Assembly (NCBI RefSeq): GCF_000025925.1
Contig: NC_014033.1
Span: 1,080,001 to 1,112,000 of the forward strand
DNA: 32,000 nt
Reading direction: 5' to 3'
Origin: Xylanibacter ruminicola 23
Lineage (GTDB): Bacteria > Bacteroidota > Bacteroidia > Bacteroidales > Bacteroidaceae
Shown here: positions 3,362-27,198 of the stretch, piece after piece
Numbering within the stretch: position 1 is the stretch's first letter
Layout: each line of letters opens with the position of its first letter
Position numbers and translations under genes: made by a program
Notes under the pieces: generated by a model
The model's database searches: none
The model's input: only the letters and a program-made list of their open reading frames with translations
What the model was told of the DNA's origin: nothing

Positions 3362-3823
3362 ATGAAGAAAATGAAAGAACCAGATATACAAAAAGCAGAT
3401 GTATCTACGGAGCTGGAGCTGCCGATGTACGATGCGATAGCAGCCGGTTTCCCTATTACCAGTGACTATCCTGCAGACAGGCTGGATTTCAATCGCGACT
3501 TTATCAAGCACCCCGAAAGTACTTTCTATGTGCGTGTGAAAGGCGATTCTATGAAAGAGGCCGGCATCTTCGATGGCGACTTGTGCCTGGTAGACAAAGC
3601 AGAAGAGATGGTACACGGCAATATCGTGGCTGCGTATGTTAACGGTGGGTTTACGGTGAAGTACCTGGATACGTCGACTAAGGATCAGGGCTTTATCCGA
3701 TTGGTGCCAGCCAATAAGGATTTCAAACCGTTTATCATCGATTCATCAGACGAGTTTACTGTCTGGGGAAAAGTAATTTTTACCATTAGAGACTGGAGGA
3801 ATAGCTATTGTTTGCCATTATAG
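3362..3823 (+). CDS. umuD: UmuD-like S24 peptidase (translesion polymerase accessory subunit)
   Basis: S24 LexA/UmuD signature GDSMKEAGIFDGDLCLVDK. No N-terminal HTH. TAATTTTG -7 box at 3347-3354. Overlaps the downstream umuC-like gene. Confidence 0.85.
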   Translation: MKKMKEPDIQKADVSTELELPMYDAIAAGFPITSDYPADRLDFNRDFIKHPESTFYVRVKGDSMKEAGIFDGDLCLVDKAEEMVHGNIVAAYVNGGFTVKYLDTSTKDQGFIRLVPANKDFKPFIIDSSDEFTVWGKVIFTIRDWRNSYCLPL

Positions 3824-5100
3824 ATTGTGATAATTGCTTCGTGAGCTGCGAGCGTGTATTCAGGCCCGATCTCAACGGAAAGCCCGTCGTTGTATTGTCG
3901 AACAACGATGGCTGTGTTGTTGCGCGCTCAAACGAAGCAAAAGCAATGGGCATCAAAGCTGGAACTCCCTACTTCCAACTAAAAGACCTCTTTCCTGGAC
4001 AGGAAATAGCGGTATTCTCGTCGAACTACGAACTGTATATCGATATGACCGACAGAGTGATGTCGCTCATCCGAAAGGAGGTGCCTGAATTCTATCGTTA
4101 CAGTATAGATGAAGGCTTCTGTATGCTGAAAGGTATGGAGCATCTCGACCTGAAAGCATGGGGCGAGGAGATGCATCAGCGCATCAAACAATGCACGGGT
4201 ATGCCGGTAAGCATCGGCATCGCCTCTACTAAGACCTTGGCAAAGATGGCCAGTCATTATGCCAAGAAATATCCCGGATTTCATCATTGTTGCTATATTG
4301 ACAATGTGACAAGACGCGATAAGGCCTTAGAACTGTATCCCATTAGCGAAGTGTGGGGCATTGGCCGACAGTATGCTAAGCGCCTTGAAGCTATAGGCAT
4401 CAAGACAGCCTATGATTTTGCAACGCTCAGCAGAAGCTGGGTTCGGTCGACCTTTAACGTTGTGGTAGAGCGCACCTGGCGTGAACTCAACGGTGAGGAT
4501 TGCATTCTTCTGGAAGACATGACTAAGAAGAAAAGCATCTGTACCAGCAGAAGCTTCCCCGGAATGGTGCCTGACTTTGAGACGCTGCGTACCAGCATCA
4601 GCAACTTTGCTGCCCATTGTGCAGAAAAGCTTCGCAAGCAACAGTCAGCAGCAGCGATTGTGAGTGTGTTCATCGATACAAACCATTTCCGAGAGGACTT
4701 GCCACAGTACTGGAACTATGCCGAGGAACGACTGTTGACACCCAGCAGTAGCACCCAGGATATCGTGCAATGTGCTCTGCGCTGCACCCAGAGGATATAC
4801 CGACAAGGGTATCAGTACAAGCGTGCTGGTGTAATCGTGATGGGCATCTGCCCTACTTCGGCTGTACAGACCAATTTCATCGACTATGATTCGGAGAAAT
4901 ATGAGAAAAAGCGAAAACTGGATGAAGCCATCGACCGTATCAATCGCATAAATGGTAGTGAGACTGTCGTGCTTGGCTCGCAACAATACACGGCTAAAGA
5001 CGGCATTGGCAAAGCGAGTGTTTTCCGAGACAGCATCAAGCACGACTTCCGTAGTCCAAGCTACACTACAAAGTGGAGCGACATTCCTGAAGCAGAATAA
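3808..5100 (+). CDS. umuC: Y-family DNA polymerase, UmuC-like
   Basis: N-terminus MFAIIDCDNCFVSCERVFRPDLNGKPVVVLSNNDGCVVARSNEAK is the classic UmuC/ImpB start. 430 aa. TTG start overlapping the umuD end. Confidence 0.9.
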   Translation: MFAIIDCDNCFVSCERVFRPDLNGKPVVVLSNNDGCVVARSNEAKAMGIKAGTPYFQLKDLFPGQEIAVFSSNYELYIDMTDRVMSLIRKEVPEFYRYSIDEGFCMLKGMEHLDLKAWGEEMHQRIKQCTGMPVSIGIASTKTLAKMASHYAKKYPGFHHCCYIDNVTRRDKALELYPISEVWGIGRQYAKRLEAIGIKTAYDFATLSRSWVRSTFNVVVERTWRELNGEDCILLEDMTKKKSICTSRSFPGMVPDFETLRTSISNFAAHCAEKLRKQQSAAAIVSVFIDTNHFREDLPQYWNYAEERLLTPSSSTQDIVQCALRCTQRIYRQGYQYKRAGVIVMGICPTSAVQTNFIDYDSEKYEKKRKLDEAIDRINRINGSETVVLGSQQYTAKDGIGKASVFRDSIKHDFRSPSYTTKWSDIPEAE

Positions 5101-10236: not shown

Positions 10237-11730
10237 TTATTTCTCGTTTAAATAGTTTTCGATTATTTCTGATTTAAGCGCTCTGCGCACTACGTCTCGG
10301 GTAAATGGGCAACCATCTACATATTCTTTTGGGTATGCGTTAGCCATTTCCAGTAGTCCATTGTATAGTTCACGCACCACATCCTTGCATCGTGCAAATC
10401 CTTTGAAAGGCAGGCTTTCCTTACTTACTCGGCTATTAAGAGTAACTGTGATATCCATCATATCGCCAACCTTCTTCAGCTCTATCTTAGTAGGCTCCTC
10501 TTCTTCGCCCAGTTCGATTACAGTCCTGGGATGATTTACTATTCTCTCCAGGCAAGTACTAATGTAACTCCACTCTATGCCCAGGTTTTCGATAGAATCT
10601 GTCATAATCATCGTTCCCAAGCTTATGCGATAGACGATGCATTTCCAATCATTGCTATCATTATGCAGATAGTTGAATGCGAATAACTGCGGCTCTAAGT
10701 CTTCTATATTCAGGCTATCACCTTCTACATTTTTATATGATTGTTTACACCACTCAAGACGCTCCAGCATCTCGTCGCGAAACCATTCAGGTGATTTAAC
10801 CACGAGACGGTCGCCATAGAACATCAGTTCCTGTATTATTTCGTAGTTTAACATCACATCTAGCGATACCTTGATGTTTCTTTCGCCCTCTATCTCAAGC
10901 TTTTGTGTTTCGCTGATGGGATACGAATATAGATAAGGATACAATGAGATATCTGCCCATAGCTCGATGTGCTCCACCGTTTTTTCAGGTGGCACCGTAA
11001 CACCTACCAGATGTTTGAAATATTGCTTAAACGATGTTTTGGTGGCTCGGTATTTTACCTCATTGTTCTCCTTTACAGCACTCATGCAAATCAGCGGATA
11101 AGCCTCAATCTTATCGCAGCCTTCCTGCTGTGCCATCAGATACCAGCGACGCCAGTACTGTTTCAGATAATATGGATGTAAAGTAATCGTTTCTGCATCG
11201 CGAAAATCCTTTCTATATTCCACATCTACCACCTGTCGATTGCGTATAGCTTTGAATAGTGGCATAAGGAATTCTGCATCCCATGGCGTTCCACCTTCAA
11301 AGCGTGCTATCTCTTTCTGCTTACTCATGATGTTCTGGTCAAGACGAGTAAGCATCTGGTCGATCCAGCCAAACTCCGACATACCCTTGAATCCCTGCAA
11401 CAGACTACGTACCTCTTGCAGCTTCTCAATCTCATTCTCCGTCAACTCACGGTTATATATCGAGTCGAATCCGTCGCGATAGCGGTAATAGCGTTTCTTG
11501 TGTCTGTCTTCCCATACGATTCCCTCCTGTCCAAACACCTTAAAGAACTTGGCATTCATCTCGGTAATATCCTGACTAAAGGTAGTTCTCGACTGGATAG
11601 GCAGCATTCCTCTATCCTCCAGCTTCCTGTTTACGATAGCCATCAACTGTTCGCGTGTATATTCACGTCCAGTACCAAAGCACTGATCGTAAATCATTTC
11701 TCGCATTGCATAGTCCTTCGTATTTGCCAT
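10237..11730 (-). CDS. WYL-domain transcriptional regulator (wHTH-WYL-WCX) with an extra C-terminal domain of about 150 aa
   Basis: N-terminal wHTH (MANTKDYAMREMIYDQ...). WYL core VDVEYRKDFRDAETITLHPYYLKQYWRRWYLMA. Start set to MANTK (11730), downstream of the -7 box at 11759-11766. Confidence 0.8.
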   Translation of the reverse strand: MANTKDYAMREMIYDQCFGTGREYTREQLMAIVNRKLEDRGMLPIQSRTTFSQDITEMNAKFFKVFGQEGIVWEDRHKKRYYRYRDGFDSIYNRELTENEIEKLQEVRSLLQGFKGMSEFGWIDQMLTRLDQNIMSKQKEIARFEGGTPWDAEFLMPLFKAIRNRQVVDVEYRKDFRDAETITLHPYYLKQYWRRWYLMAQQEGCDKIEAYPLICMSAVKENNEVKYRATKTSFKQYFKHLVGVTVPPEKTVEHIELWADISLYPYLYSYPISETQKLEIEGERNIKVSLDVMLNYEIIQELMFYGDRLVVKSPEWFRDEMLERLEWCKQSYKNVEGDSLNIEDLEPQLFAFNYLHNDSNDWKCIVYRISLGTMIMTDSIENLGIEWSYISTCLERIVNHPRTVIELGEEEEPTKIELKKVGDMMDITVTLNSRVSKESLPFKGFARCKDVVRELYNGLLEMANAYPKEYVDGCPFTRDVVRRALKSEIIENYLNEK

Positions 11731-11758
11731 ATCGCGTAGTATTTTATAGTTTATAGTG

Positions 11759-11796
11759 CAAAGATACAAAAAATCTGTTCACCTAAAGCGAACAGA
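11759..11796 (-). promoter_or_regulatory. Promoter-operator cassette A (drives WYL and DUF2779 genes)
   Basis: Plus strand caaagata-N7-tctgttc-acctaaagc-gaacaga. On the minus strand this is TCTGTTC-N9-GAACAGA-N7-TATCTTTG. Confidence 0.75.
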
Positions 11797-11815
11797 TAAT
11801 ATTTTTTTTAAAATA

Positions 11816-11858
11816 GAGCTGGCCGCCATACTCAAAAACGTCAAGTGGGTGCCAGCTC
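11816..11858 (-). ncRNA. Hairpin element H1 (terminal element of RNA array 1, terminator-like)
   Basis: 8-bp closing stem GAGCTGGC/GCCAGCTC with inner helices. Followed on the minus strand by TATTTTAAAAAAAA. Paralog of H2; both share ggccgccatactc...caagtggg. Confidence 0.55.
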
Positions 11859-11860
11859 CA

Positions 11861-11909
11861 ACAGAACTCGTTCCCTCAATAACGGGCATGCGATATTCTG
11901 TTTGTCTAA
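11861..11909 (-). repeat. E-family bulged hairpin, copy E1 (degenerate)
   Basis: ACAGAA/TTCTGT outer stem, inner CCC/GGG helix, conserved tail ttgtctaa (minus strand TTAGACAA precedes the hairpin). Confidence 0.5.
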
Positions 11910-11940
11910 CCATTTCAAAGAAATCTTTTCCTTATTAAAA

Positions 11941-11981
11941 GGCTGGCCGCCATACTCGATAATGCCAAGTGGGAGCCAGCC
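11941..11981 (-). ncRNA. Hairpin element H2
   Basis: 7-bp closing stem GGCTGGC/GCCAGCC plus inner CCA/TGG and CTTG/CGAG helices. Followed on the minus strand by TTTTAAT. Confidence 0.5.
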
Positions 11982-12022
11982 CCAATCTGCACTTAGCCGC
12001 ACCAATTGCGGCAGCCACAGAT

Positions 12023-12120
12023 GTAGATGGAAGTAAGCGACAGAATCGAACTGTTACTGAAAGCCTTGCGGCTTGCCCACCTTTACCATACATCGTGGTT
12101 CTACTTGATCTTCCATCTCC
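12023..12120 (-). ncRNA. tRNA-like element T2 (T-arm, D-arm, GNRA-capped central hairpin, encoded CCA, no anticodon loop)
   Basis: On the minus strand: 11-bp outer stem GGAGATGGAAG/CTTCCATCTAC with one mismatch. D-arm-like CCAC-[..TGGTA..]-GTGG. AAGCC-GCAA-GGCTT hairpin. T-arm ACAG-TTCGATT-CTGT. 3' region GCTTACT-T-CCA. Confidence 0.55.
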
Positions 12121-12172
12121 GACAGGACTCGCGCCCTTACATTGGGCATTGCGATATCTTGTTTGTCTAAGA
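12121..12172 (-). repeat. E-family bulged hairpin, copy E2
   Basis: gacaggactcgcgcccttacattgggcattgcgatatcttgtttgtc. Stacked helices CTCGC/GCGA and GCCC/GGGC with a 7-nt loop and a 3-nt bulge. TTAGAC tail. Confidence 0.55.
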
Positions 12173-12182
12173 CTATAAGAAA

Positions 12183-12263
12183 GGCGGATTGGCGAAGGAG
12201 TTGAACCTTGCAATATACTGCCATTACAGGAAGCCCCGCTACCGCTGCGACCATCAATCCGCC
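12183..12263 (-). ncRNA. tRNA-like element T1 (extended acceptor-like stem, D-arm, canonical T-arm, no anticodon arm)
   Basis: On the minus strand: GGCGGATTG...CAATCCGCC 9-bp terminal stem. D-arm TCGC-AGCGGTA-GCGG. T-arm AAGG-TTCAACT-CCTT. The central region forms only a 3-bp stub GCT-[TCCTGTAAT]-GGC. Confidence 0.55.
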
Positions 12264-12281
12264 TTTTTTACGATGATGTTG

Positions 12282-12319
12282 CAAAGGTAATGTTTATATG
12301 TTCAGCCATAGCGAACAGA
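12282..12319 (-). promoter_or_regulatory. Promoter-operator cassette B (drives RNA array 1, no ORF)
   Basis: caaaggta-N7-tatgttc-agccatagc-gaacaga, the same architecture as cassette A. The next 450 nt downstream on the minus strand are non-coding structured RNA. Confidence 0.7.
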
Positions 12320-12333
12320 CTGAAATTTTTTAT

Positions 12334-12825
12334 TTACATAGTATTTATTTCCGCCAATTCTTCAGGTGTATGATGCTGCATGTCATAGACAAGAGAATCG
12401 TCAGAATAGCCATTCACTATATCCTTAGCCTGTTCTTCAGTAAGAAATGGTTTTCCTTTATCTTTGATATTCAACAGAGCTTTTAAGAAATCCTGGCGAT
12501 AGTGTTCGAAAATCTCTGTAGTATAAGGAAGACTTCTGACGCTATAGTATAACTTCTTGAATTCCTCAACGGTATATATCTTACCATCTATGCACGACAT
12601 GGCACAGGCTTTAGGAAATGTGCACCAGCGTTTCAGTTCAAGATTAACAAGTAAAGATTTCTGTCCTTCTATCTGTTCAACACAGAGAAAACACTTATCC
12701 GTCAAATACTTGATAAACTCTTCCAGTTCTTTTTCGTCTTTACATCTAACTGCATAAGGAAGAATACAACGCCCTTTTCCCATGTAGTCTTCATTTAACT
12801 CTTTATAATATACTTCTTCAAACAT
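12334..12825 (-). CDS. Hypothetical protein (163 aa)
   Basis: ORF 12 nt downstream of the 12838-13179 gene, same strand. No motif recognised. Confidence 0.6.
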   Translation of the reverse strand: MFEEVYYKELNEDYMGKGRCILPYAVRCKDEKELEEFIKYLTDKCFLCVEQIEGQKSLLVNLELKRWCTFPKACAMSCIDGKIYTVEEFKKLYYSVRSLPYTTEIFEHYRQDFLKALLNIKDKGKPFLTEEQAKDIVNGYSDDSLVYDMQHHTPEELAEINTM

Positions 12826-12837
12826 AGTCCGATTCTT

Positions 12838-13179
12838 TTAAGATTGCATTTCTCCAAGTAAATAGTAAACGATTTGAGCTTTAATATACTCTTTACTGTT
12901 TTCCTCGTAGGTAATCAACTTACCAGATCTATTTGAAAACAGTTCTATCTCTGCTTTTTCGATAGCGAACCAATGAGAACTCTGCCCAGCATTGAGCTTC
13001 AAAGCATCATAGTGACGAGGCTGTAAGATACCATCGACATCAATAACGTATCCGTCTTCGTCCAAATCACAAAACAAAGAATTTGTTTCTGGGCGAATCT
13101 CACGAGTGAAAATATTAGTTTTTCCACTTATGATTTCATTCAACCTATGTTGATTTGTATCTAGCTGTATAACTTTCAT
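12838..13179 (-). CDS. Small ASCH/PUA-like domain protein (113 aa)
   Basis: Paralogous by eye to the C-terminal domain of the 13809-15008 protein (shared pattern I..GK....T.EI.P.N......L..DG.V....GI.Q.R.YDA). Start lies 19 nt downstream of the cassette C transcription start region. Confidence 0.55.
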   Translation of the reverse strand: MKVIQLDTNQHRLNEIISGKTNIFTREIRPETNSLFCDLDEDGYVIDVDGILQPRHYDALKLNAGQSSHWFAIEKAEIELFSNRSGKLITYEENSKEYIKAQIVYYLLGEMQS

Positions 13180-13204
13180 GATTCTGATATTTAAAATTTC
13201 GGAA

Positions 13205-13242
13205 CAAAGGTAAGCTATATTTGTTCAGCCAAAGTGAACAGA
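13205..13242 (-). promoter_or_regulatory. Promoter-operator cassette C (drives 12838-13179 and 12334-12825)
   Basis: caaaggta-N7-tttgttc-agccaaagt-gaacaga. Confidence 0.7.
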
Positions 13243-13262
13243 TAAATAATTTTTCAAAAAGA

Positions 13263-13304
13263 GGCAGGACTCGCGCCCTCACATTGGGCATTGCGAGCCC
13301 TGCC
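13263..13304 (-). repeat. E-family bulged hairpin, copy E3 (terminator of RNA array 2)
   Basis: ggcaggactcgcgccctcacattgggcattgcgagccctgcc. About 16 bp of stacked helices. Followed on the minus strand by TCTTTTTG. Confidence 0.6.
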
Positions 13305-13343
13305 CTAACTCCACGACCTCTGTCATTGCCATTGTGGAGAGAA

Positions 13344-13414
13344 AGGATTGGCGAAGGAGTTGAACCTTGCAATATGCCATAGAAGACCTCGCTACCGATG
13401 CGACCATCAATCCT
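13344..13414 (-). ncRNA. tRNA-like element T1-prime (paralog of T1)
   Basis: The 5' 22 nt (one substitution) and 3' 31 nt match T1, including the D-arm TCGC-ATCGGTA-GCGA and T-arm AAGG-TTCAACT-CCTT. Central stub GTC-[TTCTAT]-GGC covaries with T1 (GCT...GGC). Confidence 0.55.
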
Positions 13415-13425
13415 TTTTTTCAAAA

Positions 13426-13468
13426 GGCAGAGCTCGCGCCCTCAATACGGGCATTGCGATGCCCTGCC
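13426..13468 (-). repeat. E-family bulged hairpin, copy E4 (leader hairpin of RNA array 2)
   Basis: ggcagagctcgcgccctcaatacgggcattgcgatgccctgcc. On the minus strand it starts about 15 nt after the predicted start site, is preceded by TTAGACA and is followed by TTTTGAAAAAA. Confidence 0.55.
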
Positions 13469-13488
13469 TGTCTAACCCTATTTTTCTG

Positions 13489-13526
13489 CAAAGGTACCAT
13501 ATATGTGTTCAGGCAAAGCGAATAGA
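13489..13526 (-). promoter_or_regulatory. Promoter-operator cassette D (drives RNA array 2, no ORF)
   Basis: caaaggta-N7-tgtgttc-aggcaaagc-gaataga (one half-site degenerate). Abuts the stop codon of 13527-13802. Confidence 0.65.
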
Positions 13527-13802
13527 TTACATTTTTTCTTTTAAATGGTTCTGATATGCATCCAAAATGGCCGACGAAGCCATGTCACCAATAAGGAACT
13601 CTGGTTCACCTAAATCTTTCAAAAGAGATTCTACATTCTCGCGCTCACCAGTATAGAGCCAATTATTTCGAATCCACAATCCTAGGCCAAAGTGAAAGAA
13701 AACCATATCTTCTGCTTCCACTATTTGCTTTTTCTCTTCCAGTGTTAGCCTCTTATCCAGACATTTCCAAGCCTCCGCTGTTGTTTTAGGACACCTTGCC
13801 AT
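13527..13802 (-). CDS. Hypothetical protein (91 aa)
   Basis: ORF 6 nt downstream of the ASCH gene. Motif FHFGLGLWIRNNW noted but not confidently assigned. Confidence 0.55.
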   Translation of the reverse strand: MARCPKTTAEAWKCLDKRLTLEEKKQIVEAEDMVFFHFGLGLWIRNNWLYTGERENVESLLKDLGEPEFLIGDMASSAILDAYQNHLKEKM

Positions 13803-13808
13803 ACGAAT

Positions 13809-15008
13809 TTATATTTTATCACCTAAAACATAGTTCATAATACAGTCCGTATAATCGAGCTTTTCATCCTCTTCCTGTTCAGAATAGAGCTTATAATCAC
13901 CATATTCAGAATCCATATACATCACATCTGTATTATTAATCTGACACGTGTACGAATCTTCTTTGTTAGTGAACTGAATAGCGTCGTATCTTCTCAACTG
14001 CGGAATTCCATTAATTTCCTTTACTGTCCCATCTGCGTTTAAGATGAAAAACATACTCAAATTCTTTGGGGTAATCTCTTTTGTGAATGATGCCATTTTG
14101 CCTGTTGCAATATCCTTAAAAACATCTTTGTTAACTTTGAGTTTTAGAATATTGTCATTGCTATCAGCCATTTTAGGAATTTCCAACACATCGATTGTTT
14201 TTCCTCCACAGAAACTTTCAAATTCACCTTCTTCAATTTTCTTACCAAACATGAACTGTGCAACCATCCATGCAATTTCGTTGCCAGTAAAATCCATAAT
14301 GAAATAAGGCTTTGTTTCATCTTGTGGATCTGGGAGATTGTATATGCCAGATTCTTCAGCTAACTCAAAAGCCACATAACTATTGCCACAGAAAACTGTC
14401 ACAGTTTTAAATGACTTCATTTTGAATGCGTCATCTACACATAGTAGATCAGTCAAATAAGGAGTCAAATACAATTCTATCCCCCCAAAATCGCCAGCCT
14501 TAATCTTTTCGAATGTTTCCTTTGTACAAGGTATTTGCACCTCAGTTTCGTCTTCAGTAACATCAACATTCTCCAACTGTACTTGATGAGCAGGAGGCAG
14601 ATTGTTCTCATCCAAATCATAGTCGAAGAGGTTTAACTTGCCTTTCACGTCGAGTATTGGCTCATCAAACAACCATGCATCTTCTAGTTTCCATTTTATT
14701 GCACCAGCGTCAGCCCAAACAGAATCTACATCACCTTCTTCAAAACCAGTCACTGTAACATATCCAATAATGGCGCTTGTTGGCAATGTTTCTAGTTCCG
14801 GAATATTTCCAAAGCTTATTTGATTCTCAATACATGACTCCAGAGTTTCTGGAATTCCTGCATAGAAGTTCTTAGTAATTTTTTTAGAACTTGCGTGAAT
14901 CAGAATCCTTCTAGGAACCTGAGCTGCTTTCCAAGTTCTGTTCTCTACATCTTTAATACCTGCGCATACCAATGATGCCCAAGGCTGCTGAATTGACAAG
15001 GTTTTCAT
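13809..15008 (-). CDS. Multi-domain ASCH (PUA-like) protein
   Basis: N-terminus MKTLSIQQPWASLVCAGIKDVENRTW...RILIHAS is the classic ASCH signature. The C-terminal roughly 110 aa repeat the fold pattern of the 113-aa protein at 12838-13179. Confidence 0.75.
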   Translation of the reverse strand: MKTLSIQQPWASLVCAGIKDVENRTWKAAQVPRRILIHASSKKITKNFYAGIPETLESCIENQISFGNIPELETLPTSAIIGYVTVTGFEEGDVDSVWADAGAIKWKLEDAWLFDEPILDVKGKLNLFDYDLDENNLPPAHQVQLENVDVTEDETEVQIPCTKETFEKIKAGDFGGIELYLTPYLTDLLCVDDAFKMKSFKTVTVFCGNSYVAFELAEESGIYNLPDPQDETKPYFIMDFTGNEIAWMVAQFMFGKKIEEGEFESFCGGKTIDVLEIPKMADSNDNILKLKVNKDVFKDIATGKMASFTKEITPKNLSMFFILNADGTVKEINGIPQLRRYDAIQFTNKEDSYTCQINNTDVMYMDSEYGDYKLYSEQEEDEKLDYTDCIMNYVLGDKI

Positions 15009-18521: not shown

Positions 18522-19469
18522 TTATGCCCACATACAATTAATTGTTATTATGGATGTTGGCATTCCTATTATTTGAATATCAAACTTCAAACTAGGTTCT
18601 ATTAATGTCGAAGCATTATGTATTCTAAAACTAAATTGCCAGCCATTATCCATGTATAATTCTGCAGTATTATTACTTTTAGGCTTTAATCCAAAAGAAA
18701 TAATTCTTGTTGGCAGTAACGATATTGGTATTTTTCTACTTGGCACCTTTGTCTTAGAAGCATGATTTAATGTACCTCGAAGATTAAATGCCATAAGTTG
18801 AGTCATTTTTGATGAATCTATACCAATAAGTTTATAAAAATCATATTTACCTAGTAAGTATTCAACCATACGAGAAGGAACCGTTTTATCTTTTTCATAA
18901 TCCTTGTTAATTTCTTTAATAAAAGCCTTTAACAAAGGAACATATACGGTTGATTCTTTATTAGGGAGAGCACTCCAAGCAATTTTACCCCTGTTTTTTA
19001 TCAGAGGGGCAAAAATTGGGGCAATTTCATCCCAATATGTTTTTGAGCATGGCATACCTAACCAACTATTGCCAAAGTCCAACACATTAGACAATCTACT
19101 ATGTTTAACAGCCAGATGGTTATGCTTTACACTTATACCTATTACCCATTTTACACTATCTCGAATAATTAGAATATCTCTAACATCACCAATAATTCCT
19201 TCTTTGTCAGATTGTAATCTTATTGTGAGTATATCCCCAGAATTATCTTCTATCATAGGTTCAAGCTCACGTAAAGTTGGAATAGCAGCCAATGCTTCCT
19301 TTTTCATAATCGTCTTAGTATTCTCGTCAAGACAATTCCAATTATTCATATCCTGTATAAGGTTGTTGTTGTTTGCTACAACAACAGACCTTATTTTAGA
19401 TATTTCTTCTTCGAGACATTTAACACATATGTATTCAAATGCTCTTCCGAGTTCGTCACTTTTTGGCAT
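18522..19469 (-). CDS. Type II restriction endonuclease, HaeIII-family-like (GGCC predicted)
   Basis: 315 aa. N-terminal GRAFEYICVKCLEE, which I recall as characteristic of the HaeIII REase family. 3-nt gap from the M.HaeIII-like gene. Confidence 0.6.
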   Translation of the reverse strand: MPKSDELGRAFEYICVKCLEEEISKIRSVVVANNNNLIQDMNNWNCLDENTKTIMKKEALAAIPTLRELEPMIEDNSGDILTIRLQSDKEGIIGDVRDILIIRDSVKWVIGISVKHNHLAVKHSRLSNVLDFGNSWLGMPCSKTYWDEIAPIFAPLIKNRGKIAWSALPNKESTVYVPLLKAFIKEINKDYEKDKTVPSRMVEYLLGKYDFYKLIGIDSSKMTQLMAFNLRGTLNHASKTKVPSRKIPISLLPTRIISFGLKPKSNNTAELYMDNGWQFSFRIHNASTLIEPSLKFDIQIIGMPTSIITINCMWA

Positions 19470-19472
19470 AAG

Positions 19473-20465
19473 CTAGAATTCTATAGCATCTTTAATCGCT
19501 AGGGCAATTTCATATGCAAGATTAACTGGAACAGCATTTCCAATCATCTTGTATGCATTGTCTACCTTGTCATAAATAAATTTAAAAGAGTCGGGGAAAC
19601 CTTGTACTCGTGCAACCTCTCGAACAGTCATTCTTCTATACAAATGCTCTTTCCCTTCAACAAATCTACAATCATTTGTGTCAAATTTAATCATCTTTGG
19701 AGCTTGTGGATGTAATTGGCATTGTCTTCCAGATGCCTGAACAGTAAAACCTTGTTCATCCCAAGCCTTAACTCTATTTCTACTCATATAAATTGTAGAA
19801 TAAGCGCCAATAAAATACTCATTGTTATTAATAGCCTCTGGATTATGATGGTTCTTTTCAAGTGCAGGTACTGCACTATCTTTTAAATCCCAAATAATAT
19901 CACGTAGTGTAATTTTTTTCTTATCATCACGTGTACTACCTTCTGGAAATTTAAAATCTATATTTAAATCATTTCTAAAACCAATATAAAATACTCTTTT
20001 TCTTTCTTGAGCTACTCCATAATCTTTTGCATTAACTAAAGTAAGAGAAACATTGTAGCCACTTTCCTTGAACATATTTAATATATTCTGAACGGCACCA
20101 GAATGTCTATCCGCAAGCATACCGCTTACGTTTTCTGCTAAAAAGAATTTAGGTTTTACTTCCTGTAATATTCTTATATAGTCAAAGAAAAGCTGACCTC
20201 TAGCATCTTCAATACCACGTAAAGAACCAGCTTCACTCCAAGATTGACATGGAGGTCCACCTATTATACCATCAACATCTTTAGGGAAGTCACTTTCCTT
20301 GATATTTCTAATATCACCCCTGATTAGCTTTGTTTTGGGGTGATTTGCTTCAAAAGTTTCCCAAATAGAGGGATCAAACTCGTTTGCAACAGGTACTTCA
20401 AATCCAGCTCTTTCAAAGCCAAGATCTAGACCTCCACAACCGCTAAATAAACTTATTACTTTCAT
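19473..20465 (-). CDS. DNA (cytosine-5)-methyltransferase, M.HaeIII-like (GGCC predicted)
   Basis: All C5-MTase motifs: [11 protein letters not shown] (I), [12 protein letters not shown] (IV), ENV (VI), [10 protein letters not shown] (VIII), [13 protein letters not shown] (X). The target-recognition region [19 protein letters not shown] and [14 protein letters not shown] closely tracks the M.HaeIII sequence as I remember it. Confidence 0.9.
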
Positions 20466-20474
20466 TTTTAAATT

Positions 20475-21335
20475 TTATATTTTATATTTTACTAGTTTTA
20501 CTTCTATTAAATCAGCTGTATTATTGGGGTTTTGAACAAAAGTATCTTCTATTGTAAGATTATCAATCCTTTGAGAAAGCTCTGACAATTCATCTATGTT
20601 CTCAAAAGAATTATACTTATCACTTGGTATAATAGCCATTAACTCAAAATTACTTTCATCATATCTGTATATATCGGCAAAACTACCTACTTTAAATGGA
20701 TGAGATATACCCCACATTCCCCTAGCTCTAAAAAAAGTTATTCTCAACGGGTCAACAGCATTTATATGCGCAAGTTCTTTGGTTTCTTCTAAATCTAATT
20801 CAGATGATTCTTCAATGCTTTGTTTCACACTATTAAAAACATTTTCATAACATTCTTTACTTGCACAATATACTGAACCATATACCAGGGCTAATGACTT
20901 TAAATTATTTTTCTTTTTTTCAACACAGCCAATGGCATATATTATATCTTTTACATCCCAATCTCCATTTTCTATTTCACGACAAGCCTTTGATATTTTA
21001 CTATCATTTTTAAACAAATGAGATTTGGGATAGCTACTATTTAAATTAATGTTTCCGATTGACTCAACTTTTTTCACTTCAATTGCAGCTCCTCTTTTAA
21101 GAACTGCATCTGGGGGATTATTCTTTCCACCGCCATATGACAAAGCCTCTGCACGCTTCCTTGTTTTGTCAACACCACTTAAACCAAGAGAATTGGAAAA
21201 AGCATCTTTAATATACTCCTCTAAAGGCTCTCCTAACGAATGTAAACGATTATTAGAATTAGGGGAATTTCCAATAACTCTTCTATTATCTTTAATTATA
21301 TTAATAATTGCAGTAATAATATTGTAATTGCTCAT
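20475..21335 (-). CDS. Second restriction-endonuclease candidate (PD-(D/E)XK; possibly NgoPII-family)
   Basis: 286 aa. PPDAVLKRGAAIEVKK fits a PD...(E)xK catalytic core. Size and N-terminal NIITAIINI...EPLEEYIKDAF resemble what I recall of the NgoPII family. 9-nt gap to the methyltransferase gene. Confidence 0.45.
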   Translation of the reverse strand: MSNYNIITAIINIIKDNRRVIGNSPNSNNRLHSLGEPLEEYIKDAFSNSLGLSGVDKTRKRAEALSYGGGKNNPPDAVLKRGAAIEVKKVESIGNINLNSSYPKSHLFKNDSKISKACREIENGDWDVKDIIYAIGCVEKKKNNLKSLALVYGSVYCASKECYENVFNSVKQSIEESSELDLEETKELAHINAVDPLRITFFRARGMWGISHPFKVGSFADIYRYDESNFELMAIIPSDKYNSFENIDELSELSQRIDNLTIEDTFVQNPNNTADLIEVKLVKYKI

Positions 21336-25449: not shown

Positions 25450-27198
25450 TTACATAATACCACCCAATGAAATAGGATATGTTTCATGCTGGGGAAACTT
25501 CTCACAACCGATGTAGAGGGTATCAAAAGCATCGGTGCCGTCGGTTCGATGCTCGAGCAGGTCCTCTTCAGACTCGGGCTGCTTCTCCATAGACTTGTTC
25601 TTGCGGAAGCCCAACCTGCCCCGCTCTACCCCAGCCGACTGGATTGCCAGTATGAGATCGTCGTTGTTCTGACGATTGAAGAACGGCATGAGGCGCTGCT
25701 TACCAGCGAAGCCCTGATTGATGAGCAGGTACTTCTCATCGTGGCGCATAGGGTTGCCCAGGTACACATCCTGTACCTGCCACCCGTGGCGCTCAAATTC
25801 ATGGACGACGACGTAGCGGAAGTCCTGGTCATTCACGGCATAGTTCGAGCCGAGGGCCGTGGCGTCGTAGTAGAAGATAACCGTCTTGTTCTGATGATAA
25901 GCGTAGTACGCGCAGAAATCATCGACCAAGGCGGGAATCTTACGCTCGAACTTGACGTAGAAGGATTTGAGAATATTCAGGCGGGAGCCAGATGGCTGGC
26001 CGGCTACAATCCAGTTGATATTGGCATTGTAGTCCATGCCGATGCAAATCGGGGCCAGGGGATTCACATCCTCGTCGGTGCGGCTGTCAAGCTGAGAGCC
26101 GAGGGTGCTGAACTGCGAAGCTGCTTTGATGTCGTAGTTCTGAAGGCTCGTCTCCTTCAGAATCTTGTCGTAACCGAGCTCGTCGAGGTACGCAAAGTTC
26201 GAGGCATCATACTTGTGGTGCTCCTGCATCGAGGAGTAAAAACCGTCGTGTGTGATGCCGATACGCTGGCAAAGGATACTGGTCTGAAACGTCTTGGGTG
26301 TCAAGTCACGTTTCATCTGACGCAGATACTCTTCGCCCAGGAGCTGCAGATTCTCAATGGTGCTGTACTCTTTGTAGTACACCGCCACTGAGCGGAACTT
26401 GTTGAGCGACTGGTCCAACCATTTCAAGTAGCCTTTCAGGTACTGAGGAATGGGCTGGTGCTGCTCTTTCAGACGGGCGATACGTTCCTTTGTCTCCCAA
26501 ATCTTATAGATGGTGCCCTGAATGGTGGCAATCAGTTCTGGGTCCATCTTCTCTCGATAATGCAAGAACCAGGAGCCTTTCTGGGTCTGGGGCATATCGG
26601 ATAGAACCATCATTGAGTGATTGAACGAATGATGGCCGAAATATGAGCGAATACCGCCGTTAGCGGGAAGTGTCTCATCTTTCAGTTTGTTGTAATCAAT
26701 GAACTTGGCTTCGTCTATTAGCAGCCAAGAGAGTGTCAGAGAGTTAGAAGATCCAGGACGGTCCTGAGAGATGATAACTGCTATGGATCCGTTGTAGAAC
26801 GTGATGACGTGTTCATAGTCAGCAGGTTCGGTAATTGGCTTGGCAAATGACCTCGGAGGCTTGCGACCAACGACGTAGTGGATACCGTTGAGATAGCCCC
26901 AGCGCTTCCATGCTGCAAGCAGACCAGGAATGGTGTTTGTCAGGCCGTGTTTGAATGTTGGAACCACAATTCCCCCAGTGGAACCGGGCATTCTCTGCAT
27001 ATTCCTTAAGACGAATGGCGAGGCTATGGAGTCTGTTTTACCGGTACGGCGACCAGCGACAATGACGGTTGTCTTGGCACCGATGTACTGTGCCATTAGC
27101 TGGGGCTTGTTGAAGTACACGCGCTTTTCGTGCTTACGGGCTTCATTGTCCCATTGCTTCAGGAGTTCAGGGTTTGTATGAGGGGATTGTGTGGACAT
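25450..27198 (-). CDS. terL: Terminase large subunit
   Basis: Walker A VIVAGRRTGKTDS. Walker B WLLIDEAKF. C-terminal nuclease-type acidic motifs (IGMDYNANINW). 582 aa. Confidence 0.85.
   Translation of the reverse strand: MSTQSPHTNPELLKQWDNEARKHEKRVYFNKPQLMAQYIGAKTTVIVAGRRTGKTDSIASPFVLRNMQRMPGSTGGIVVPTFKHGLTNTIPGLLAAWKRWGYLNGIHYVVGRKPPRSFAKPITEPADYEHVITFYNGSIAVIISQDRPGSSNSLTLSWLLIDEAKFIDYNKLKDETLPANGGIRSYFGHHSFNHSMMVLSDMPQTQKGSWFLHYREKMDPELIATIQGTIYKIWETKERIARLKEQHQPIPQYLKGYLKWLDQSLNKFRSVAVYYKEYSTIENLQLLGEEYLRQMKRDLTPKTFQTSILCQRIGITHDGFYSSMQEHHKYDASNFAYLDELGYDKILKETSLQNYDIKAASQFSTLGSQLDSRTDEDVNPLAPICIGMDYNANINWIVAGQPSGSRLNILKSFYVKFERKIPALVDDFCAYYAYHQNKTVIFYYDATALGSNYAVNDQDFRYVVVHEFERHGWQVQDVYLGNPMRHDEKYLLINQGFAGKQRLMPFFNRQNNDDLILAIQSAGVERGRLGFRKNKSMEKQPESEEDLLEHRTDGTDAFDTLYIGCEKFPQHETYPISLGGIM

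Follow-up and report, generated by a model that had tools for sequence, protein, structure and literature searches.

The region described here, termed array 2, lies on the minus strand of a 32,000-nt stretch of Xylanibacter ruminicola 23 DNA (contig NC_014033.1, positions 1,080,001 to 1,112,000; hereafter the window, to which all positions refer, GC 41%), and is predicted to be a non-coding transcription unit made up of a promoter cassette, a bulged hairpin (E4), a tRNA-shaped RNA (T1′), a hairpin designated S, and a second bulged hairpin (E3). The cassette (13522-13489) combines an inverted repeat, ATTCGCTTTGCCTGAACA, of the form (A)TTCGC-N-..TGAACA (13522-13506), which overlaps the -33 TTTG, with the -7 box TACCTTTG (13496-13489); this arrangement follows the promoter consensus of Bacteroidetes, TAnnTTTG preceded by TTTG. 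Downstream follow the A-rich leader AAAAAUAGGGUUAGACA (13483-13469), which is predicted to be single-stranded, unpaired in the fold and ends in UUAGACA (TTAGACA in DNA, 13475-13469), and E4 (13468-13426), which scores 63.9 bits with covariance model R1 and folds at -29.7 kcal/mol (z = -4.05). The linker UUUUG-AAAAAAA (13425-13414), a weak U-tract and then a complementary A-run, separates E4 from T1′ (13413-13345; 87.5 bits with covariance model R2), the minimum free energy (MFE) fold of which is a four-way cloverleaf. A short U-rich stretch, UUUCU (13344-13340), leads to S (13339-13309; CUCCAC/GUGGAG stem and the 19-nt loop AAUGGCAAUGACAGAGGUC), the junction UUAG (13308-13305) and E3 (13304-13263; 69.2 bits with R1, -33.1 kcal/mol, z = -6.0), which has no bulged A and carries the loop AAUGUGA. 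The U-run UCUUUUUG after E3 (13262-13255) is a terminator-like site called by the terminator scan, and the transcription unit probably ends there, just ahead of the next cassette (13240-13205), which drives an open reading frame (ORF) of 113 amino acids (aa).

The order of TTAGACA, E4, T1′, spacer and E3 proposed in the original prediction, which had been made from the letters of the window, was recovered on the minus strand, with a spacer of 36 nt (13344-13309) followed by TTAG. The spacer itself was found to be the conserved hairpin S, which had been overlooked; six sequence variants share its 19-nt loop and have between them two stems related by covariation, CUCCAC/GUGGAG and AAUCUC/GAGAUU. 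The paralogous unit, array 1 (12290-11800, minus strand), carries T1 (12263-12183; 96.9 bits with R2), E1 (12163-12121; 60.3 bits with R1), a second tRNA-like module, T2 (about 12143-12045), two G terminator hairpins (GCUGGC..GCCAGC), and E2 (11902-11860; 27.6 bits with R1); the elements of the two arrays are duplicated within 1.3 kb. T2 has the T loop GUUCGAUUC and a terminal helix of 10-11 bp, which covaries in loci L018, L072 and L104. That array 2 is a paralogous, non-coding array of structured RNAs, as first proposed, is upheld by repeats beyond chance, by covariance-model scores and by folds, which agree: the E core pattern was matched three times in the window and the 5′ half of T twice, with 0.00 matches expected from shuffled sequences in either case.

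Perfect complementarity joins the 3′ strand of each of E4 and E3 to the 5′ strand of the other, for which reason the MFE fold of the whole of array 2 is domain-swapped, at -94 kcal/mol against about -87 kcal/mol for the sum of the four local folds. The local hairpins would be favoured by co-transcriptional folding, yet a fold switch in array 2 is possible. Mini-palindromes of a U-run and an A-run were observed at module junctions (UUUUGAAAA, UUUUUGAAAAA, UAUUUUAAAUA and UUUCUUUGAAA; window positions 13414-13425, 13251-13262 and 11915-11935, and the linkers of L072 and L079), and several of these junctions also look like weak TnnnTTTG -7 boxes.

The E elements consist of an 8-bp lower stem, an optional bulged A, the helix UCGC/GCGA, an AAU bulge, the helix GCCC/GGGC and a 7-nt loop; E4 includes the bulged A and has the loop GUAUUGA. 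Sense E copies scored 60-70 bits against at most 24.5 bits antisense, and G.U pairs outnumbered A.C pairs 26 to 6 across the copies, which together place the E fold on the transcribed minus strand. An integron attC-like DNA site was considered, since GTTAGAC fits GTTRRRY, and was rejected: no partner core site is present, and the 26 G.U against 6 A.C pairs speak for an RNA fold. The four E copies of the window had been described as keeping the stacked helices and the 3-nt bulge, which does not apply to E2; this copy is without the bulge and belongs with its relatives to a separate conserved subtype, E′ (CGC(A/G)UGCCC...GGGA). The apical loop had been described as varying, but in the homologue sets of T and E, which were gathered by exact patterns and are biased to conserved loops, it is restricted to two conserved classes, one like AAUGUGA and the other like GU(U)AUUGA. 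Kissing of the two loop classes (CAAUAC and GUAUUG are complementary) was considered and remains an idea, as L087 has two loops of the same class and leaders with a single E exist. TAGGGTTAGACA precedes E in most loci, and the 5′ stretch is conserved before most E copies.

Divergent E copies were found near distant genes for regulators of the WYL type, described below. In the copy of L100, UCCUACUG/CAGUAGGA and GUAC/GUAC replace GGCAGGGC/GUCCUGCC and UCGC/GCGA. Both bulges, the single A and the AAU, persist in it, as do GCCC/GGGC and an apical loop, AAUGUGA, that equals the loop of E3. Since lower stems are replaced by compensation and the bulge, GCCC/GGGC and the loops stay, E is better understood as a specific recognition hairpin than as a generic terminator. 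The suggestion that E4 is not just a terminator is strengthened accordingly by full compensation in the lower stems of distant homologues, by retention of the bulge and apical motif, and by copies without a U-run. Within the window E was found only in the two arrays, and in the JGI metagenome collection (241 million records) the E core pattern returned 12 real loci (GC 0.35-0.42), all of them homologous arrays, and 14 further matches in GC-rich DNA that are attributed to chance. The occurrence of E as a generic terminator after unrelated genes, named at the outset as what would refute the proposal, was therefore not seen in the window or in these 241 million records, where E is confined to homologous arrays. 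A single match to the E core in IMG/VR (L001) lies inside a zinc-ribbon ORF and was rejected as chance, and E is absent from the loci in which T stands alone. A U-rich tail follows 11 of the 17 close E copies, and E3, as a -33.1 kcal/mol hairpin with UCUUUUUG, has the make-up of an intrinsic terminator.

T1′ is composed of a 6-bp terminal helix (GGAUUG/CAAUCC), the junction AUGG, a D-like arm (UCGC-AUCGGUA-GCGA), a 3-bp stub (GUC/GGC), AUAUU, and a T-like arm (GCAAGG-UUCAACU-CCUU(C)GC). The alignment of the T family, comprising 27 distinct sequences, has the same layout of terminal helix, invariant AUGG, D-like arm (UCGC-AUCGGUA-GCGR), variable stub, invariant AUAUU and T-like arm (GCAAGG-UUCAACU-CCUU(C)GC), with 89% of its cells paired. 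The elbow motifs UUCAACU and AUCGGUA are invariant or nearly so in the 27 sequences and agree with those of tRNA (T loop UUCRANY, GG in the D loop). Two-sided changes were counted at 12 of the 20 pairs, against 6.9 in shuffles (reached in 0 of 500) and 4-7 in slid controls. Selection on the structure of T1′ is borne out by this family alignment and not by the pair of T1 and T1′, from which it had been argued: instead of one substitution in the D loop, the D arm differs at two positions (G/U in the loop, and U.G against U-A in the stem), and the stub of T1, taken earlier as a covarying 3-bp helix, is a 6-bp helix with a U.C mismatch (GCUUCC/GGCAGU), the change being a wobble swap.

The stub folds in every copy, with a length of between 3 bp (in T1′) and 9 bp and frequently with a GAAA, UUCG or GCAA tetraloop, and this variation in length together with the tetraloop caps marks it as a structural filler, not an anticodon arm. 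In T1′ it has 3 bp and a 6-nt loop, where tRNA has a 5-bp anticodon stem and a 7-nt loop with U33; a 7-nt loop, UUAACAG, was found in only one variant (L012/L024b/L028/L036). The closed terminal helix of variable length implies that T cannot be aminoacylated. ARAGORN called neither a tRNA nor a tmRNA, whether in the window or at the T copies of 17 loci, and Rfam 15 gave no match at gathering scores in the window or in 14 related loci, and chance-level matches only at E ≤ 10 on 11500-14000. The best match within the tRNA clan of Rfam was that of T1 to tRNA-Sec (20 bits, E = 1; gathering scores 29-47), with none for T1′, and a genuine tRNA-Pro reached only 20 bits with model R2 against 96.9 for T1 and 87.5 for T1′; T is on these scores tRNA-like but not tRNA. 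The Rfam model of DUF2815 RNA (RF03084) scored 17.4 bits (E = 8.3) over 13405-13478, below its gathering score of 41.2. T is, as read from its alignment, a predicted mimic of tRNA shape, with a terminal helix stacked on the T-like arm, a D-like arm with GG, a 5-nt analogue of the variable region, and a dispensable stub in place of the anticodon arm.

A search pattern taken from the D and T loops, applied to one genome per species, yielded 17 loci from species-representative contigs, 16 of them with T and almost all labelled Bacteroidales (Prevotella, Hoylesella, Parabacteroides, Muribaculaceae, Bacteroidaceae). The same pattern identified 35 viral contigs in IMG/VR, where a first scan with the exact 3′ half of T had returned no match, and T was also present in many metagenome contigs. 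In the IMG/VR contigs T stands alone; its terminal helix comes 6-7 nt after a TAnnTTTG box, and a simple terminator lies directly behind it. In Prevotella-type phages, oral and gut (L020, L024, L027 and the 35 IMG/VR contigs L029-L063), T lies antisense in the gap before the terminase genes, between a module of a 165-aa gene, a ParB-like gene and a PAPS-reductase gene and the genes for the small and large terminase subunits; L024 has two different T variants in tandem. Within phage genomes and arrays, T occupies internal positions, not element ends. It is a widespread family, borne mainly by Bacteroidales phages and mobile elements. In two contigs binned as Ruminococcus lactaris (L012) and Senegalimassilia (L028), the T with the UUAACAG loop and the gene rpsP are convergent, in surroundings that look chromosomal; to judge by the TAnnTTTG promoter of this T, these contigs may be mis-binned Bacteroidales DNA.

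Downstream of array 1 on the minus strand lie the gene of a WYL/WCX regulator-like protein (11769-10237; Pfam WYL 2.1e-10, WCX 1.3e-06; PADLOC WYL 1.4e-20) and that of a DUF2779/Cas4-like nuclease (10234-8720; Pfam and PADLOC). The regulator ORF has 510 aa, or 497 aa from the ATG used in relatives, and its WYL/WCX part matches the PafBC transcription regulator in PDB (3.6e-4). Four promoter cassettes, all on the minus strand, were located between 11.7 and 13.6 kb (13522-13489, 13240-13205, 12317-12282 and 11794-11759); they serve the two RNA arrays and two protein genes, the fourth (11794-11759) driving the WYL and nuclease genes. Their inverted repeat, TGTTC(G/A)C..G(C/G)TGAACA, overlaps the -33 TTTG. 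WYL genes of other loci have this cassette in front of them too, and 10 of the 15 array loci in which modules were annotated end at a cassette and then a WYL gene.

WYL homologues were also collected blind to the arrays (309 matches), and contigs were fetched for seven of them. In the 497-aa class (58-69% identity, different neighbours), T was found upstream on the same strand in 5/5 and E in 3/5. T and E were both present upstream of P0023 (L104/105; 69% identity, with DUF2779 and HNH genes), P0040 (L090-092; 66%, with an MmeI-type restriction-modification and a helix-turn-helix gene upstream and DUF2779 downstream) and P0051 (L100/101; 64%, with Fic and no nuclease), and T upstream of P0058 (L093/094; 63%, with Fic and DUF2779) and P0087 (L102/103; 58%, with an RNase T-like exonuclease). 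P0093 (L095-097; 55%) is chromosomal, beside TonB-dependent receptors, and has no array, the cassette standing directly before the gene; P0112, of a 345-aa class (51%), has neither T nor E. No WYL relatives were confirmed in IMG/VR. The linkage of arrays to WYL genes, and the presence of the cassette before WYL genes even without arrays, make the inverted repeat probably the operator of the WYL protein, and the fixed linkage over changing contexts indicates that the arrays and the regulator, usually with a nuclease, move between contexts as a unit. Neither this linkage with its shared operator cassette, nor the loop classes of E, nor T as a phage-borne family had been recognised in the original prediction.

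Module annotation revealed a variety of architectures (P, promoter). The order P-E-T-S-E of array 2, followed by the next promoter and the 113-aa ORF, recurs in L069. Other arrangements that run into an ORF are P-E-ORF (L064), P-E-T-ORF (L077), P-G-M-E-T-ORF (L073), P-E-S-E-ORF (L076), P-E-T-S-E′-T2-E-ORF (L072) and P-T-E-T-S-E′-T2-E-T-ORF (L079), and L014 (P-T-S-E-H-G) and L018 (P-T-H-G-M-T2-G) were annotated as arrays of RNA modules. Nine leaders, from eight loci, have E as the element that comes first behind the promoter. In L064, L076 and L077, E lies in the 5′ untranslated region (UTR) of a protein gene that has no other promoter; with no promoter between leader and ORF, transcription passes E and T, and E with its U-run is therefore no absolute terminator. 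In array 1, L014, L018, L093 and L102, T stands directly after the promoter with no E before it, which implies that E is not required for T.

Several modules of these loci are not in the window and lie upstream of WYL genes (L018, L073, L075, L090, L102), and none of them is in Rfam 15: H (GUCUG.GGCU.CCGC.AU.GGUGCGG..CAGAC), M (CGCAUCGGUAGGCG..CAGACCCC..GGGUGGCAAG.., then a terminator), S′ and a leader hairpin, GCGCUUGAAU.GAGAUUCAAUCGC. Altogether, no counterpart of the modules E, T, S, T2, G, H and M was found in Rfam. The start region of the ORF after the last E in L072 and of that in L087 reads MVIWKRNRK(N/Y)IKKAAKAQ and has no homologue in the window; by analogy, this Arg/Lys-rich N-terminus is reminiscent of arginine-rich RNA-binding peptides.

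The element carrying the arrays looks like a prophage by its gene content, which includes a terminase large subunit-like ORF (25450-27198), a weak portal match and a sigma-like/A1S_2505 phage non-structural protein. Near the arrays are genes for an ASCH protein (399 aa), a DUF6794 protein (91 aa) and two small ORFs. Two regions of the same element (window 18522-21335 and 3362-5100) account for a GGCC restriction-modification set, in which RE_HaeIII and RE_NgoPII genes flank one cytosine methylase gene, and for a UmuD/UmuC pair on the plus strand. The product of the 113-aa ORF (12838-13179) resembles by eye small ASCH-like proteins encoded beside T (L023, 206-703; L024, 3628-4023), with which it shares YDAL.L..G; Pfam gave sub-threshold ASCH matches for the L023 and L024 proteins and none for the 113-aa ORF, the product of which is a possible candidate for an RNA-binding partner. 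In ENA contigs L005-L011 (ERZ7615xx), several of them of high coverage, the similarity breaks in all cases at window positions 13893 and 12806. The 1088-bp block between them (12806-13893; ASCH C-terminus, DUF6794, array 2 and the 113-aa gene) is joined to different flanks, one of which is a flagellar hook gene, odd for Bacteroidales, and the block would be a module of mosaic recombination or else an artefact of assembly.

The reading favoured here, with modest confidence, is that array 2, in the accessory region of the prophage-like element, would be an independently promoted non-coding unit of E4, T1′, S and E3 which gives rise to stable RNAs under WYL control, with T imitating the tRNA elbow and E both binding a protein and acting as a leaky terminator. 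In this scheme, the WYL protein would bind the inverted repeat and control all four cassettes. E4 would fold about 15 nt after the start, and its short U-tract would end a fraction of the transcripts as an RNA of about 60 nt; the remaining transcripts would pass T1′ and S and stop at E3 and its U-run, yielding an RNA of about 225 nt. T1′ may then be a stable, trans-acting imitation of the tRNA elbow and of the stacked acceptor and T helices; a factor reading tRNA shape and not the anticodon would have in it a decoy, a sponge or a scaffold. The apical motif of E would be the binding site of a protein, and the hairpin would double as a leaky terminator in this lineage.

A number of points weigh against this scheme. 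The whole of it is built on sequence, folds and comparison, and the tRNA-binding partner of T is still hypothetical. The start of array 2 is placed at about 13480-13483 by the promoter consensus alone, and binding of the inverted repeat by the WYL protein, which we infer, rests on co-occurrence. The stand-alone T genes of Prevotella phages have no WYL gene nearby, so that the link to WYL may concern regulation alone. With its closed terminal helix of 6 to about 19 bp, T is no obvious substrate of RNase P or of CCA addition. Within the close, pattern-selected set of E copies the structure is kept mainly by G.U changes and covariation is not significant; two-sided changes at 10 of the 16 pairs, against 3.0 in shuffles (0 of 500), were obtained from the alignment that includes divergent copies, which was fitted to the model, and this qualifies its covariation. 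E4 is followed only by UUUU, below the scan requirement of 5 T in 8, and was not called. The distant E copies of L090 and L100 are internal and without a U-run, which indicates that termination is not a conserved property of E.

These last two points also speak against an attenuator, as suggested in the original prediction, the strongest of the alternatives though itself unlikely. Here the main role of E4 would be regulation in cis: with its U-tract it would end most transcripts after about 60 nt, and a phage or host factor, or else an alternative fold, would allow read-through to T1′ or, in sister elements, to the gene downstream. The position of E as first element in nine leaders and within the 5′ UTRs of L064, L076 and L077 is what an attenuator would show, as are the U-rich tails of 11 of the 17 close copies and a layout like that of TAR or boxB, with the 3-nt bulge beneath a short GC helix; as read from the sequence, the 5′ segment UAGACAGG could also pair with the 3′ strand CCUGUCUA as the alternative fold. 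Conservation of this anti-terminator pairing would be hypothetical, and the placement of T directly after the promoter in array 1, L014, L018, L093 and L102 indicates that control of T does not need E.

Rather less probable, and put forward tentatively, is a wider view in which the T/E/S arrays, the WYL protein and the nuclease (DUF2779/Cas4-like, or RNase T-like in L102) would form a hitherto undescribed RNA-containing immune or counter-immune module of Bacteroidales mobile elements. The T RNAs would be baits or decoys for tRNA-directed nucleases or other readers of tRNA shape, the WYL domain would sense RNAs or their fragments and switch the four operator-controlled promoters, and the apical motif of E would be the handle of a dedicated RNA-binding protein. 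RtcR, which senses tRNA fragments, offers an analogy for such sensing.

It is more doubtful again that the arrays are processing cassettes, in which RNase P and RNase Z would cut at the borders of T and free E-hairpin RNAs and, in sister elements, a defined mRNA 5′ end, in a manner likened to tRNA punctuation or to MALAT1-mascRNA. The 6-bp terminal helix and 6-bp T-like arm of T1′ could form a 12-bp coaxial stack as in tRNA, with A-rich and U-rich single-stranded linkers around it, T lies between other modules or directly before ORFs, and bacterial tRNA-like domains can be RNase P substrates, as in YrlA of M. smegmatis (PMC4201824). Most array copies, on the other hand, extend the terminal helix to at least 9 bp (GGCGGAUUG/CAAUCCGCC) and have no conserved unpaired discriminator; the stand-alone T genes begin transcription at the helix and so have nothing to release, from which it follows that T has a function of its own.

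A base-pairing small RNA (sRNA) appears improbable as well. The promoter-proximal AAAAAUAGGGUUAGACA, the E hairpin and the U-run would then constitute a trans-acting antisense sRNA of about 60 nt, laid out as is usual in Bacteroides, with the 5′ stretch as its seed, and this stretch is indeed conserved before most E copies and unpaired in the fold, in a layout like that of FopS/GibS, which have a single-stranded 5′ seed and a terminator hairpin in about 65-70 nt (PMC11697453). A seed cannot explain why the bulge and apical loop are kept over a covarying lower stem, E3 is without most of the 5′ stretch, the stretch has no complementary target in the window beyond the element itself, and there was no match to FopS in Rfam. 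Lastly, it is very improbable that these are non-functional remnants, with T1′ derived from a tRNA gene by decay or from an integration site by duplication, and with the E copies as ordinary terminators duplicated along with it. The resemblance of T to tRNA, the frequent integration of phages into tRNA genes and the duplication of the elements within 1.3 kb would fit this. Against it, both families keep their structure by compensatory changes across genera, a regulated promoter of its own stands before each array, the positions of T in phage genomes and arrays are internal, and E was found in homologous arrays only and not behind unrelated genes, in the window and the metagenome records scanned.

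T represents a new, well-supported tRNA-shaped family on the phages and mobile elements of a dominant gut and oral bacterial order, missed by Rfam 15, by ARAGORN and by annotated phage and plasmid records. The dispensable anticodon arm, next to an invariant elbow and junction, implies that T is read by something that recognises tRNA shape, and T makes it directly testable in Bacteroidales how tRNA mimicry benefits phages. Given the association of the arrays with WYL protein, operator and nuclease, a class of systems that has been regarded as made of protein alone may include an RNA component. In addition, E, S, T2 and the other modules provide at least seven new motifs for RNA family databases, and the promoter/operator cassette a defined part for Bacteroidales genetics. 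Annotated phages and plasmids gave no match to array 2, to a 1.9-kb region or to stand-alone T. Searches of the literature gave no account of the T/E arrays, and 200 supplementary files of PMC8040213 contained no match; a listing under an anonymous identifier in the large catalogues of candidate phage RNAs (PMC10690425, PMC8040213) is possible.

Among known systems, T is comparable to the tRNA-like domain of YrlA Y RNA (PMC4201824), likewise a non-coding RNA with a core built like the elbow of tRNA (stacked helix, T arm, and D arm with GG), with no functional anticodon arm and with D and T sequences conserved beyond the need of tertiary structure. It differs in that its ends leave an acceptor-like helix and not a long Ro-binding stem, and in being linked to a WYL regulator or standing alone in phages; neither the Ro-binding motif GNCGAAN0-1G in T or its flanks, nor a TROVE domain in the 21 larger ORFs of the window (Pfam), nor a Y RNA match in Rfam was found. 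With tRNA and tRNA-like RNAs (the tmRNA domain, mascRNA, the species 1/2 RNAs of phage T4, and viral tRNA-like structures) T shares the four-way junction, the T loop UUCAACU, the GG of the D loop, the 5-nt analogue of the variable region and, in T1′, the 12-bp coaxial stack, but it has no anticodon loop and no CCA end, its terminal helix is closed and variable, and its junction has the four bases AUGG instead of U8-N9. Some T copies begin with GUGGAUUGA, which resembles the end of type I-C CRISPR repeats; mimicry of a CRISPR repeat by an RNA anti-CRISPR was rejected, as that helix covaries freely and the likeness is a coincidence.

The E hairpin resembles the lambda nut boxB/N, HK022 put, lambda tR′/Q and HIV TAR systems in that it is conserved, folds after the start of several co-regulated promoters, has a 3-nt bulge under a short GC helix and a conserved apical loop over a variable lower stem, and has terminators downstream. 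It bears no sequence relation to them, a cognate antiterminator would be hypothetical, and E carries a U-run here and also occurs internally and at the 3′ ends of arrays. FopS/GibS (PMC11697453) are alike in being multicopy, of about 60-70 nt and transcribed from a canonical Bacteroides promoter, whereas in E the hairpin is the conserved part, not only the 5′ stretch, and is embedded in arrays; identity with FopS/GibS was rejected, the layout being alike and the family different, and Rfam gave no match, whether at its gathering scores or, over 11500-14000, at E ≤ 10.

The regulator shares with the WYL-domain regulators of mobile-element and defence operons (PafBC, BrxR, CapW, DriD) the WYL and WCX domains, an inverted repeat before the gene, and nuclease and restriction-modification neighbours, and differs by about 170 extra C-terminal residues of unassigned fold. 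No WYL regulon is known to control arrays of structured non-coding RNAs. T and E are uncatalogued families akin to tRNA mimics and leader hairpins, respectively, and their link to a WYL regulon is the unexpected part.

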